Shown in pieces: positions 10,397 through 44,494 of a stretch of 64,000 nt of DNA. Numbering within the stretch: the first letter of the stretch is position 1; each line of letters begins with the position of its first letter. Location: IMG/VR virus record IMGVR_UViG_3300045988_114440, positions 37,704-101,703 of that record, one strand, 5' to 3'. The position numbers and the translations under genes were made by a program. The notes under the pieces are model-generated. The model made no database searches. It was not told where the DNA came from and saw only the letters and a program-made list of their open reading frames with translations. Origin of the DNA: a virus.

Positions 10397-10789
10397 CTTA
10401 AACCTACAAACTCGCTGATTATCAACATTTTATTTAAATTATTGATAATCAACGTATTATTGTAACCTATTGATTATAAGCCATTTAAATAAACATATAT
10501 CCTACATATTAATGTACGCGTATAATACCGCTCTTGTGTATTTTGTAACTTGCTAATAATCAGATAATAGAATCGAAATTAATACAAGTTAACAAAAAAA
10601 AGATAGTATATATATTTGTAGTAACAATAAAAGTAGTATATTTGCAATGTGTTAAAGCGATAACACATGCTGACATGATGATCCTATATAGTGTACCCGT
10701 TGGGCAAACTATATCTGTATCTGTAATTGCCCGCGTTGTGGGTTATTAAGTTGAATATCATTTGTTTAACAATTAAAATATATTGGATT

Positions 10790-11329
10790 ATGATTACAAA
10801 GAAAAACGTTAACAAACTACAAAACACTGTTATTAAAGAAAATGCTTCTAATTTGGTAGGCGCGGTAAAATTGTATAACGCTTTATTTTCGAATGGAGCT
10901 GACTTGAAAGCAATTTGTAAGACGTTGGAAATACCAACCGAATATGCTGTAAAGGTTGCGGCACTCGCAAAGGACAAAAAACGGTTGGTTGCCGTGTGTA
11001 GCCAAATGTTACCTAAAGTAGGTGATACCTTTGTTAAGTTTTCTTTATACTCTAAAGTATATAAGGATAACAAGGTGGACAAGGAAAAAGGAATTGAGGC
11101 AAAAACGGCTGACTGGTGCGCTGATAATGTGGTTTATGGCGGGGAATATAAATCTTTCGGTTTTTCAACCGCTGAAACATTGGAGACAAAAAAAAGCACA
11201 AAGTGGCTTGTTAAAGAAACGGACGAGTATAAAGCTACTTATGTAGCCGTTAAGATCAAGTCTTATTCAATTCGTACCGTTGCAAAGTGTGTGAGTGAGT
11301 ATTTGGCGCACGAAAGCAACCAGCAGTAA
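10790..11329 (+). CDS. hypothetical protein
   Basis: Track ORF 10727-11329 trimmed to ATG 10790 (MITKKNV...); preceded by a TTTAACAATTAAAAT motif. Confidence 0.45.
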   Translation: MITKKNVNKLQNTVIKENASNLVGAVKLYNALFSNGADLKAICKTLEIPTEYAVKVAALAKDKKRLVAVCSQMLPKVGDTFVKFSLYSKVYKDNKVDKEKGIEAKTADWCADNVVYGGEYKSFGFSTAETLETKKSTKWLVKETDEYKATYVAVKIKSYSIRTVAKCVSEYLAHESNQQ

Positions 11330-11800
11330 AAAAAGGTTAGGCGCGTACCGTTAAACGCGTCTGTACGCCGTTGTCAGTGGGTGCACGTCCCGCGTATGCT
11401 TTAGACTGAAGCTGACAAAACAGAGAGTTATTTTACATATTGGAGATAGATATACCTTTGCCCTTGCCGTTGGCAATTAAAGGGCTGGTATTGCTGCATG
11501 AACTGCACTAAATAAGTGTGGTTTATGTTAGGTATGTTAGTACAGTTTGGAAAACATACCGTTGTACGCGGTTTATCTCCAGACCGAAACGTGTCTTACT
11601 TGCCTACACGTAAAATAGGACAAGGCTGTAGATTAAATTACAGGGTATAAACATGTAGCCTACCATGTAGGAGCGTGATATATCAAAACGCAAGGACACA
11701 ATCGCCTTTATTTGTGGCTAAGTTGTGTAGCAGACGGAAAATATAATAACAACATAGTACGGGCCTGTACACAAGAACTACGTACTAATTACGGGCTGTT

Positions 11801-11863
11801 GGTTGTAGCATAAAATTCGTATAGAATAGGAATGCGTGTTCGGTTCGATTCCGGAGCAACCTC
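11801..11863 (+). ncRNA. tRNA-like minihelix element (acceptor-like stem plus canonical T-arm)
   Basis: ttcgg-TTCGATT-ccgga T-arm; 5' ggttgt pairs with 3' gcaacc; no anticodon arm found by eye. Confidence 0.3.
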
Positions 11864-11886
11864 TAAATTATAAACAATATAATAAC

Positions 11887-42039: not shown

Positions 42040-42278
42040 GAATTAGAAAGATAATAGAGGATATAATTATTACTCAGTTTCTTAATTCGGAAATGGATAT
42101 AGTTCATGAAGAAGATGTGTCGTTTAAAGAACTTGGATTAGACTCTATTGATCGAATTGAGCTTGATGCGATGGTGGAACAAAAATTCAATATCGTTATT
42201 ATTGATTATGATACAGAATCCATCAAAGAGATGACTGATCTTGTTTACAAAATAATAACAGAAGGATATGGGAAGTGA
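42027..42278 (+). CDS. acyl carrier protein-like (83 aa)
   Basis: EELGLDSIDRIELDAMVEQKFNIVI matches the ACP helix-II DSL phosphopantetheine-site motif (LGxDSLD.VEL...EF.I); size 83 aa. Confidence 0.55.
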   Translation: MEKVRIRKIIEDIIITQFLNSEMDIVHEEDVSFKELGLDSIDRIELDAMVEQKFNIVIIDYDTESIKEMTDLVYKIITEGYGK

Positions 42279-42762
42279 TATAATTTTATGCATGGCTTTA
42301 ATAGCATCATTTGCTTTTGTTATACAGTTTTTGTTGTCGATATTAGGATCTGATCTGGATACGGATATTGACATTGATAGCGCTTCTGATTTAAGCATGT
42401 CTTTGTCGGACATCATATCATTCAAAGGCATAACACATTTTATTCTTGGATATAGCTGGACTACGTACTTTTCGGGTTCCCATTTAGTAGGGATCGTAAT
42501 AGGGTCATTTTTCTTTATCGTTTTGTTTTACGTATATAAGTTACTTCTTAAGTTAAAACAAGAAATGGTGTACGAATGTCCGGAAGATTTAAATGGCAGA
42601 GAGGCGGAGATAGTATTTAGATCAGGTAAGAATCATTATATGGTAAATATTTCGAAAAATGGAAGACAGGAACAGATGAGAGTGAGGTGCTTGTCTGGAA
42701 AAAATTACAAAAACGGTGACAAGGTGAATATAAAATACGAAGAAGGAGAATTAAGTATCTAA
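42268..42762 (+). CDS. NfeD-like membrane protein (short form; stomatin/flotillin operon partner)
   Basis: Three N-terminal TM helices then a C-terminal beta-rich domain GREAEIV...GDKVNIKYEEGELSI; overlaps the ACP-like gene and precedes the SPFH gene. Confidence 0.55.
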   Translation: MGSDIILCMALIASFAFVIQFLLSILGSDLDTDIDIDSASDLSMSLSDIISFKGITHFILGYSWTTYFSGSHLVGIVIGSFFFIVLFYVYKLLLKLKQEMVYECPEDLNGREAEIVFRSGKNHYMVNISKNGRQEQMRVRCLSGKNYKNGDKVNIKYEEGELSI

Positions 42763-42793
42763 TTTTTTTATCAACAATTAAATTTTAAAAGTT

Positions 42794-44494
42794 ATGACAA
42801 CAATCATGTACGTGTCAGCTATTTTAGCTGTAGTGATTATTTTGACAATCATCGGAGTCTTATCAAGGTATCGTAGATGTAAGCCTAATCAAGTCTTGGT
42901 CGTTTATGGTAAGACAGGTGGGGAAAAGAAATCGGCGAAATTATATCATGGTGGAGCGGCATTCGTCTTGCCTATTATTCAAAGCTATGATATTTTGTCT
43001 ATGGAGCCTATGCAAATAGATTGTAGGCTCACCGGTGCTTTGTCGTCTCAAAATATCAGAGTGGATGTACCTACTACTATTACAGTAGCAATCAGCACAA
43101 ATCCTGAAATTATGCAGAATGCAGCAGAAAGGCTTTTGGGGATGGATACTGAATCTACTGAAAATCTTATTACGGATATTGTTTATGGCCAAATGCGTTT
43201 GATCATTGCTGAAATGACGATTGAAAAACTTAATTCTGACAGGGATGAGTTTTTGGATAAGGCAAGAAAAAACATTGATAACGAACTTAATAAGTTAGGC
43301 CTTTACCTCCTAAATATCAACATCAGTGACATCAGAGACGAAGCCGGCTATATCATGAATCTTGGCAAAGAAGCTGAAAGTAAGGCCCTGAACGAAGCAC
43401 AGGCTAATATCGAAGAACAGGAAAAGCTGGGTGCTATTAAGATTGCTGTACAGCAAAAGGAAAAAGAAACGGCTGTAGCTAATACCCAAAAAGAGCAAGA
43501 GATTCAAATTGCCTATACTGAAAAAGAAAAGGAAACGGTAGTAGCTGAAACAAAGAAAGAAAAAGAAGTAGCTTTGGCTTTAACCGATAAAGAAAAACAG
43601 ATCGGTGTAGCTCAAGCCGATAGAGATAGGGCTGCGGTTATTGCAAAGACTTTGGCTGATAAGGAATCAGCGATCGCAAGATCTAAGGCAGAACTTGAAG
43701 TAAACAAAGCTGAAGCCGAAAGAATGGAAGAAGTCGGGAAGAATAAAGCTGAAGCTGATAAACAAGCAGCTATAGCAATACAAGACTCTGAAGCTCAGAT
43801 TAAGAAAGCTGAGGCTGAGAAAAATGCTTCTGTAGGCTACAACAATGCCCAGAAAGAGGTTGCTGTATCAGAATCAGAGCTACAGGTTATCAAAGCTCAA
43901 TCAGAAAAGAAAGCCGGAGAAGAGAGAGTTAAATCGGAAGCGGCTGTGAAAACGGCAAAAGAGCTTGCTGATAAAGAAGTGGAAGAAGCTAAAGCTAAGA
44001 AGGTTCAAGCTGCGCTTAAAGCTGAAAAGATTGTGCCGGCTGAAATTCAGAAGCAGGAGGCTATGTTGCAAGCTGATGCTGAAGCTGAGAAGATCAAACG
44101 CCGGGCTGATGCCGAAGCAGCAGCACATTTGGCAAAAGCAGAAGCGGAAGCAAAAGCTATTCAGATGAAGCTGGAGGCAGAAGCCGAAGGTAAGAAAAAG
44201 TCGTTGATGGCAGAAGCCGACGGATTTAAGGCTATGGTGGAAGCAGCAGAATCCAATCCTCAGATCGCCATCCAGTACAAGATGGTTAATCAGTGGAAAG
44301 AAATTGCCGGAGAACAGGTTAAGGCATTTGAGCACATTAACCTCGGAAATATCACGGTATTTGACGGCGGTCAGAACAGTACCGGTAATTTTCTTAACAA
44401 TGTTGTTAAGACCGTCGCTCCGGCATTGGGAGTCATTGATCAGCTTCCGATTGCAGATACTTTAAAGAAGTTAAAAGGAGATGACAAAAAATAA
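42794..44494 (+). CDS. SPFH/band-7 flotillin-like protein with long E/A/K-rich coiled coil
   Basis: N-terminal TM helix, SPFH core (PNQVLVVYGKTGG...GGAAFVLPIIQS...RVDVPTTITVAIS...), then about 300 aa of AEAEKKA-type repeats. Confidence 0.7.
   Translation: MTTIMYVSAILAVVIILTIIGVLSRYRRCKPNQVLVVYGKTGGEKKSAKLYHGGAAFVLPIIQSYDILSMEPMQIDCRLTGALSSQNIRVDVPTTITVAISTNPEIMQNAAERLLGMDTESTENLITDIVYGQMRLIIAEMTIEKLNSDRDEFLDKARKNIDNELNKLGLYLLNINISDIRDEAGYIMNLGKEAESKALNEAQANIEEQEKLGAIKIAVQQKEKETAVANTQKEQEIQIAYTEKEKETVVAETKKEKEVALALTDKEKQIGVAQADRDRAAVIAKTLADKESAIARSKAELEVNKAEAERMEEVGKNKAEADKQAAIAIQDSEAQIKKAEAEKNASVGYNNAQKEVAVSESELQVIKAQSEKKAGEERVKSEAAVKTAKELADKEVEEAKAKKVQAALKAEKIVPAEIQKQEAMLQADAEAEKIKRRADAEAAAHLAKAEAEAKAIQMKLEAEAEGKKKSLMAEADGFKAMVEAAESNPQIAIQYKMVNQWKEIAGEQVKAFEHINLGNITVFDGGQNSTGNFLNNVVKTVAPALGVIDQLPIADTLKKLKGDDKK

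Follow-up and report, generated by a model that had tools for sequence, protein, structure and literature searches.

An A/T-rich translation-initiation region that lacks a Shine-Dalgarno (SD) sequence is known from Bacteroidia, in the Fibrobacteres-Chlorobi-Bacteroidetes (FCB) group (Baez et al. 2019, PMC6847099; Wegmann et al. 2013, as cited within PMC9581028). In Bacteroidetes, adenines are over-represented at positions -14 to -11, those at -12 and -13 correlate with ribosome density, and ribosomal protein bS1 was proposed as their reader (PMC6847099); the same adenine signal, with its link to translation efficiency, is also supported by other studies (PMC7366714, PMC13000457). Here, we analyzed a stretch of viral DNA of 64,000 nucleotides (IMG/VR record IMGVR_UViG_3300045988_114440, positions 37,704 to 101,703; hereafter, the window), in which the word AACAATTAAA recurs just before several genes, named below by the position of their start codon. 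An earlier note had proposed the word as a phage-specific promoter of a middle or late class, read by a modified RNA polymerase (RNAP), and had kept a shared translational enhancer as a fallback. With moderate confidence, we suggest that the motif is a translation-initiation leader cassette and not a phage-specific promoter. The fallback fits best, given the register of TTAAAA within the word, the free spacer that follows it, and the swap of its left half at gene 24717 in relatives.

The locus resembles the Bacteroidia region in its A-tract at -14 to -11 in register with the AUG, its weak structure, the absence of SD enrichment, and its presence before most genes. However, the published signal is a positional preference for A, whereas the element found here is an exact word of 16–18 nt containing C and a T-rich prefix. 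In other words, the initiation signal is already known in kind, and the residue that remains, the extended word, is modest.

The recurrence before start codons was borne out. The exact word lies at 10768, 13183, 23591, 24696, and 42773 on the plus strand and, inverted, at 16670-16679 on the minus strand: six matches (five plus, one inverted) against 0.89 expected. None of 100 dinucleotide shuffles reached six, so that its frequency stands above what base composition predicts; on the plus strand alone, an order-2 Markov model expects 0.32. All five plus copies are followed by a long open reading frame (ORF), with 11 nt from the last A to the ATG (12 nt at 10790) and TTAAAA at -16 to -11 of the start codon. 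Nevertheless, a 13-mer allowing up to two mismatches was not enriched (14 vs. 10.3 expected), and when columns were shuffled keeping the position-specific upstream composition, some 10-mer recurred at least five times in 6 of 500 trials (1.2%). Thus, judged from the window alone, the excess is real but moderate.

To extend the comparison beyond the window, deposited phage genomes were searched for relatives, and csAssE-Sib (OR575929, 151 kb, a human gut phage), ~92–95% identical to the window, was the sole close one; IMG/VR held hundreds. With these relatives, the longer element could be written as (T/A)TGTTTAACAATTAAA(A/T), of 16–18 nt, with six sense copies per genome; csAssE-Sib presents six sense copies and one inverted. 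Four copies carry the longer word (T/A)TGTTTAACAATTAAA (class I), and three only AACAATTAAA(A/T) (class II). Other sources were less useful. Three fragments of deposited phages (~33% primase identity, different GC content) gave no usable signal, and a scan of IMG/VR for AACAATTAAAA-N10-ATG was uninformative, with scattered singles in unrelated contigs among the matches listed. In the homologue search with the 10790 protein, the best 120 matches all presented at least 87% identity.

We infer a Bacteroidia host because the genome uses positionally enriched and conserved host-type -7 boxes, its starts lack SD sequences, and csAssE-Sib encodes Bacteroidetes-associated carbohydrate-binding proteins. 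The primase has a weak similarity to those of Parabacteroides phages. A contig search for host DNA with the flotillin-like protein retrieved a single match, an unrelated Planctomycetia metagenome-assembled genome, and the host initiation-region statistics were therefore taken from the literature. In the window, genes on the plus strand (1-55164) comprise replication genes and small genes of unknown function, and from 55533 onward genes lie on the minus strand and encode virion proteins according to the csAssE-Sib annotation. The motif-bearing genes of the window belong to the early/replication block, outside the late genes.

To describe the ordinary starts of this phage, we aligned the 40 nt upstream of the 104 predicted starts in the window and compared them with 430 internal in-frame ATGs. 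A reached 65–70% at -14 to -11, and T 37–43% at -17 to -15. At least three A at -14 to -11 were present in 66 of the 104 starts (63%) and in 66 of the 430 internal ATGs (15%; p = 1e-21), and TTAAA at -17 to -11 in 20 starts (19%) vs. five internal ATGs (1%; p = 3e-11). SD-like words were not enriched (5/104 vs. 20/430), and none was found at the motif sites. The median minimum free energy around starts was -2.4 kcal/mol, compared with -6.5 kcal/mol around internal ATGs. csAssE-Sib showed the same initiation pattern across its 185 predicted genes, among them the late ones.

The motif falls in this same register. All its copies have AAA(A/T) at -14 to -11, and TTAAAA-N10-ATG occurs 10 times in the window vs. 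2.8 expected, eight of them at gene starts. In all sense copies and in all relatives the spacer measures 11–13 nt, and its sequence is free. Since TTAAAA at -16 to -11 matches the published A-rich region, ordinary initiation accounts for the right half of the motif and for the constant spacing between it and the ATG: what stands in the 3′ half is the generic SD-less initiation signal of Bacteroidia. Same-strand genes are most often spaced by -4 or by +11/+12 nt, and where it is +11/+12 the upstream gene has its TAA stop within the TTAAAA of the next one, copy 3 of the motif (Table 1) being an example. The generic TTAAAA also stands before genes with a 4-nt overlap with their upstream neighbor.

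A separate observation concerns six genes with a perfect (A)GGAGG 4–10 nt before the ATG (13568, encoding 26 aa, 13802, 15293, 18814, 41126, and 51121). Ribosomes of the presumed host lineage are reported to be blind to SD sequences unless bS21 is missing, and these six genes may form a separately regulated translation class.

The motif could be followed at five sites among relatives. Gene 10790, a 179-aa ORF that is the first after a long non-coding region, has 63 distinct upstream variants among its orthologues: TTTAACAA[T/A](T)AAA is invariant while the flanks show many substitutions and indels, two independent deletions adjoining the motif leave it intact, and the 11–13 nt to the ATG vary in sequence as well. 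At 13204, the block AATCGGAATGT[T/A]TAACAATTAAAA[T/C] is conserved in relatives and the spacer is free (atggatggt or ataaacaac). At 23612, AACAATTAAAA is invariant in 80 related loci (22 distinct upstream variants), and its AAC AAT codons show no synonymous change, although this is confounded by coding overlap: copy 3 overlaps the TAA stop (23597-23599) of the ORF 23309-23599, whose protein ends in L-N-N. At 24717, many relatives have the left half of AACAATTAAAA swapped for AACAACTAAAAA or ACATAATTAAAA, and the A-tract, as TTAAAA or CTAAAA, keeps its register with the ATG. At 42794, conservation is so high throughout the region that a motif footprint cannot be told apart.

Taking these data together, we regard it as an evenly balanced judgement that the extended word is the leader or initiation cassette of a few uncoupled genes. 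It would be a longer, discrete version of the SD-less leader, used by some six genes in each genome. Gaps of 31 nt or more hold five of the six sense copies per genome and four of the five in the window (copy 3 sits in a 12-nt gap), and genes after such gaps cannot rely on translational coupling; coupling would thus be unavailable to most carriers. The element would be transcribed within the mRNA, from upstream host-type promoters or by read-through, and could offer the 30S subunit an unstructured landing site rich in A/U and C/A, with bS1 as the probable contact. The exact word might recur because its copies descend from one leader cassette, or because a regulatory contact has been added.

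Short unstructured leader elements just upstream of the ribosome-binding position are also found in other phages, as A/U-rich and C/A-rich enhancers. The leader of phage T7 gene 10 contains 'epsilon' (TTTGTTTAACTTTAAG), an A/U-rich translational enhancer upstream of the ribosome-binding site, for which pairing with 16S rRNA was proposed. The class I prefix TTTGTTTAAC is, presumably, the same 10-mer as in that leader. However, epsilon works together with an SD sequence, whereas the motif sites described here have none.

The earlier note had seen conservation beyond a generic A-rich leader. This does not hold for the 3′ half, TTAAAA, which is common to many genes, and holds to a degree for the left half, (TGTTT)AACAA. 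Given TTAAA in register, column frequencies predict AACAA at -21 to -17 in ~0.5% of genes, and it was observed in 5 of ~15. One explanation would be that the repeats have no function beyond the generic signal and are copies of a single leader cassette, multiplied at module boundaries by duplication or recombination, which we consider unlikely. The column shuffles are in its favor, since a 10-mer recurred five or more times in a small fraction of them, and so are other in-register 11-mers that recur, such as AATATTTAAAA, found twice in csAssE-Sib. It also gains from recombination junctions placed at the motif: at the flotillin site of relatives a different upstream gene is joined at the T-run, right at the motif, and three cassette types exist at 24717 among relatives, with the junction at the motif. 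Such a cassette might have been kept because changes in a constrained low-complexity region are mildly deleterious, an equally unlikely proposal. However, the block at 10790 is invariant in 63 variants with varied flanks and survived two independent adjoining deletions, which argues against mere descent. Next to two copies, we also observed a poly-T of variable length (7–11), directly upstream of copy 5 (42760-42772) and of copy 2 (13150-13176), in different relatives.

At the transcriptional level, phage promoter classes (the 23-bp T7 type, T4 late TATAAATA, the N4 hairpin, and the middle promoters of phi14:2) are likewise short words before a subset of genes, mostly intergenic, and one copy of the motif also follows a terminator-like hairpin. 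They differ in that no cognate polymerase or sigma factor was identified here and in that the register is explained by the initiation signal. In phi14:2, the best-studied crAss-like phage, no motif is common to the regions upstream of early transcripts, and the middle promoters look like host -35/-10 elements (bioRxiv 10.1101/2020.03.07.982082). To look for the promoters of our phage without a prior motif, we searched words in the gene-oriented intergenic DNA of csAssE-Sib. The top words were TATCTTTG, with 10 of its 16 copies within 4.3% of the sequence (p = 1.5e-10), and TATATTTG. Both are the Bacteroidetes -7 box, TAnnTTTG; the motif words were absent from the top oriented intergenic words. 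De novo, this genome thus returned the host box and not the motif as its promoter signal. Across the window TAnnTTTG is not in excess (42 vs. 49 expected), and its enrichment is positional only.

The host-type boxes are often fused to the initiation region. In csAssE-Sib, 28 boxes lie within 60 nt of a start, 12 of them at 14–18 nt from the ATG and directly followed by the A-tract; those of the form TATCTTTGtgAAAAAA..ATG precede the portal gene, the 'muzzle' protein gene, and other virion genes. As transcription in Bacteroidetes starts 5 nt after the G of the box (PMC6847099), the fused boxes give leaders of 12–14 nt beginning at the A-tract. Thus, the visible promoter class of this phage is the host type and not the motif.

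The proposal of a middle or late promoter served by a modified RNAP found no positive support: the A-tract is generic, the de novo search returned the host-type box, the motif genes of the window lie in the early block, and gene 10790 has another promoter upstream. No phage RNAP or sigma factor was identified, in a scan that was not exhaustive: Pfam and PHROGs covered the motif-bearing genes and a few adjacent ORFs. The DFDxD or D[FYLIVM]DxD signature that marks the virion RNAP of crAss-like phages was absent from the 2140-aa ORF (55533-61955, minus strand) and from the csAssE-Sib ORFs longer than 700 aa, and the search for a PDB sequence relative of the 2140-aa ORF gave none. In this lineage, a crAss-type virion RNAP would therefore be hypothetical.

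A variant of the host promoter was also considered. The class I prefix TATGTTTA could be a -7-like box that carries A in place of G-5 and is joined to the initiation region, a reading that we hold as a tentative minority view. In it, host RNAP, possibly with a phage factor, might start inside AATTAAAA and produce mRNA from the A-tract, like the TATCTTTG-tg-AAAAAA promoters do, which is possible but doubtful. At 20–21 nt from the ATG, TATGTTTA occupies the same slot as the fused boxes of csAssE-Sib, and TATGTTTG is present as a box before 8137. The placement of most sense copies in long gaps, one of them after a terminator-like hairpin, would also suit a promoter, as would the csAssE-Sib copy of the late region (96638), which lies in a 176-nt gap; the inverted copy could serve as an antisense promoter.

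However, the sequence of the prefixes does not fit well. In Bacteroidetes -7 boxes, G-5, T-12, and A-11 are near-invariant and G is virtually absent at -9/-10 (PMC6847099). None of the prefixes TTTGTTTA, AATGTTTA, TATGTTTA, TAAGTTAA, GTTTTATA, and TTTTATCA matches TAHHTTTG: all lack G-5, only 2 of ~10 have TA, and TATGTTTA also has a G at -9. The class II prefixes (TAAGTTAA, GTTTTATA, and TTTTATCA) cannot be matched to such a box. Compared with the primary-sigma promoter (-7 TAnnTTTG, -33 TTTG), which the phage does use, the motif lacks G-5 and mostly T-12 and A-11, and its most conserved part lies downstream of the box position. If instead the core were the -10-like element, leaders would be 3–5 nt long, which is rare in Bacteroides, where 5′ untranslated regions (UTRs) have a mode of 23 nt and 3.7% are under 10 nt (PMC7366714). 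Moreover, the motif words are missing from the oriented intergenic set, the searches described above identified no sigma factor or RNAP gene, and gene 10790 already has a canonical conserved promoter.

Upstream of the orthologues of gene 10790, only three blocks are invariant (63 variants): the -7 box GTATATTTGC, CCGTTGGG, and TTTAACAA[T/A](T)AAA. Directly after the box, a hairpin keeps its pairing (GTGTTA..TAACAC, GTGATC..GATCAC, and GTATTC..GAATAT), and box and hairpin together likely mark the RNA 5′ end, the transcription start for this gene, as judged from their conservation. With the conserved promoter and the covarying hairpin ~150 nt upstream of the gene, copy 1 lies inside the 5′ UTR; it is unpaired in the consensus structure, 115–130 nt beyond the hairpin. 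Apart from the motif, the invariant CCGTTGGG block sits at 10698-10705 of this ~140-nt 5′ UTR, and together with the hairpin it suggests a structured leader, possibly regulatory.

Table 1. Motif copies, promoters, and hairpins discussed in the text (positions refer to the window unless csAssE-Sib is named)
Feature	Sequence or form	Position	Strand	Remarks
Copy 1, class I	TTGTTTAACAATTAAAAT	10762..10779	+	12 nt before ATG 10790
Copy 2, class I	ATGTTTAACAATTAAAAT	13177..13194	+	11 nt before ATG 13204 (86-aa ORF)
Copy 3, class II	AAGTTAAACAATTAAAAA	23585..23602	+	11 nt before ATG 23612 (354 aa)
Copy 4, class II	TTTTATAACAATTAAAAA	24690..24707	+	11 nt before ATG 24717 (246 aa)
Copy 5, class II	TTTATCAACAATTAAATT	42767..42784	+	11 nt before ATG 42794 (566-aa SPFH/flotillin-family protein)
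Inverted copy, class I	ATGTTTAACAATTAAATA	16668..16685	-	Overlaps stop and 3′ UTR of gene 15865-16674
Host-type -7 box	TATATTTG	10637..10644	+	Invariant in 63 variants; second box at 10611-10618
5′ stem-loop		~10648-10667	+	Directly after the conserved box; pairing kept through two-sided changes at 4 pairs
Terminator-like hairpin	TGGGATGGG..CCCATCCTG	24663..24689	+	10 pairs, z = -2.7; T-rich tail into copy 4
Fused cassette	TA(T/C)CTTTG-tg-AAAAAA-N8-10-ATG	csAssE-Sib 23235, 40113, 41696, 65603, 74826, 79486, 92624, 99871		
Fused cassette	TA(T/C)CTTTG-tg-AAAAAA-N8-10-ATG	33597, 54193, 61986(-)		
Host-type boxes	TAnnTTTG	Before 821, 8137, 28690, 33622, 39113, 54220 (+); 61955, 62420, 6824 (-)		
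Perfect 16-bp terminator hairpin, not a motif copy	Shares only AACAATTA	55277-55292 / 55301-55316	+	Between convergent gene blocks

Several observations weigh against the initiation cassette. Within the initiation signal itself, local folding gives motif-bearing starts no less structure than the other starts, and the exact recurrence of the left half exceeds the generic signal to a degree. A position weight matrix built from the motif copies, run over the window and the whole csAssE-Sib genome, gives high scores at these sites only, with no intermediate ones, and before genes 10790 and 13204, where the DNA is non-coding, the motif block does not vary. Register alone is no bar to a promoter, as the canonical promoters are themselves phased at 14–18 nt from the ATG. 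Copy 4 comes directly after the best intrinsic-terminator-like hairpin of its region, whose 3′ arm changes in relatives only from C to T, compatible with G-U pairing, and no canonical box is nearby; no other observation speaks as strongly for a promoter, provided that the hairpin neither lets transcription through nor serves in RNA processing or stability. Finally, the inverted copy is the sole one that the translation reading leaves unexplained, with no plausible gene: downstream on the minus strand there is only a 34-aa antisense ORF.

The inverted copy also raises the possibility of an operator. It matches the csAssE-Sib copy at 96638-96658 over 21 nt, and the plus-strand RNA at this place holds a perfect anti-motif in a 3′ UTR, just upstream of a hairpin. 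A trans-acting regulator could co-control about six genes through the 16–18 nt element, which we find quite improbable; its partner would be an RNA-binding repressor of the RegA type or the anti-motif RNA from the plus strand at 16660-16690, a suggestion we rate just as low. The motif copies do form a discrete class, exactly conserved beyond generic initiation needs. The inverted copy lies on the same transcribed strand and is complementary to the class I copies over 15–21 nt, and in Bacteroides, small RNAs that pair with initiation regions are known repressors (PMC11697453). However, the predicted duplexes of the anti-motif with A/U-rich leaders (-13 to -16 kcal/mol) do not exceed shuffled anti-motifs in stability, and the site variants do not change in concert within genomes. 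A footprint around the inverted copy was sought in relatives, and the region was uniformly conserved. The Pfam and PHROGs scans of motif-bearing genes and a few adjacent ORFs gave no candidate regulator; among the motif-bearing genes they pointed to no function in common, with SPFH/flotillin as the sole match.

More generally, (T/A)TGTTTAACAATTAAA(A/T) could be a dedicated control site superimposed on the SD-less region, with a regulon of about six genes that includes the first genes by a repeat-flanked terminal unit described below; we find this rather unlikely. Such a site might take the form of a non-canonical promoter for a host polymerase redirected by the phage, or of a target for a phage antisense RNA or RNA-binding repressor, and our doubts extend to both forms. 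The antisense candidate would be the complementary copy in the 3′ UTR at 16668-16685, which is no more probable than the control site itself. Two other candidates were rejected: a dimer-binding site on the palindrome TTTAA-N3-TTAAA, whose left half-site is absent in the class II copies, and a site for integration host factor, whose consensus does not fit the motif.

Despite these doubts, we favor the initiation cassette, and some of the sites first listed with it need correction. The second gene was placed at 13195, and we instead assign its start to ATG 13204, since csAssE-Sib and many IMG/VR relatives have no ATG at 13195 and keep the 11-nt spacing; the csAssE-Sib orthologue reads AACAATTAAAAcataaacaacATGAACG, without an upstream ATG. 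The copy reported in the 55277 terminator has no more than AACAATTA in common with the motif, 8 nt at the beginning of a perfect stem, and is a coincidence. The weaker copies before 32390 and 13802 turned out to be permuted A/T-rich words out of register, and 13802 has a perfect AGGAGG instead. Matrix matches of the form TTGT(C/T)TAACAATTAACAA in relatives are likewise coincidental, being inside TnpB-like coding sequence (..LNGNCLTINK..).

These findings imply that, in Bacteroidia phages, an A/T-rich word 11–12 nt upstream of starts should be read first as an SD-less ribosome-binding signal and not as a promoter. The signal is of use for start calling, favoring 13204 over 13195 in the window and, at the late-region copy of csAssE-Sib, 96666 over the annotated 96609, and for the design of Bacteroides expression cassettes. 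Should a specific partner of the extended element exist, this abundant uncultured gut phage lineage would provide a rare instance of co-regulation by post-transcriptional or non-canonical transcriptional means.

Apart from the motif, the region of the first two copies has features of its own. The segment 10284-13004 appears as a separate contig of ~2.75 kb in thousands of public short assemblies and is flanked by purine-rich GGGAGAGAGGGGG / GGAGAGGGGGAGAGGGAGGG repeats. Many IMG/VR contigs break at ~10.1–10.2 kb and ~13.05 kb, and the ends of the csAssE-Sib record map to 12368/12369, inside the segment. This pattern probably reflects a direct terminal repeat or a repeat-flanked unit of some other kind. 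Copy 1 lies inside the segment and copy 2 just past it. Between the unit and copy 2, at 13010-13165, there are degenerate tandem repeats of ~55 nt (ccaacaaaattcaatagataagcgttttaaaacagcattctgtagg..), in 2–4 copies among relatives, just after the unit and just upstream of copy 2. These could be iterons, an origin, or an array of binding sites.

Besides, three ORF-free and GC-richer stretches of the plus strand (~11330-11865, 13465-13778, and 14482-14640) carry a T-arm-like GGTTCGATTCC at 11843, 13752, and 14614. They present an acceptor-like 3′ strand, two of them ending in ..ATCTCACA(C/A)AAC, 25–40 nt before the starts 11887, 13802, and 14655. ARAGORN and Rfam, even at E ≤ 1, made no calls at these three places, and the stretches fold into long hairpins plus the T-arm. 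They may be tRNA-like processing signals or an undescribed RNA.

Finally, a HEARO RNA (RF02033, the IscB-type omega-RNA family) was matched at 44685-44914 on the plus strand, with 90 bits against a gathering score of 83. The match lies within a 361-nt segment (44672-45032) inserted here with respect to csAssE-Sib. Its neighbors include neither an IscB nor an HNH ORF, and the flanking ORFs are conserved in csAssE-Sib, which has two TnpB genes elsewhere in its genome. The segment resembles a guide-RNA-like element standing alone, or what is left of an IS200/IS605-type element.

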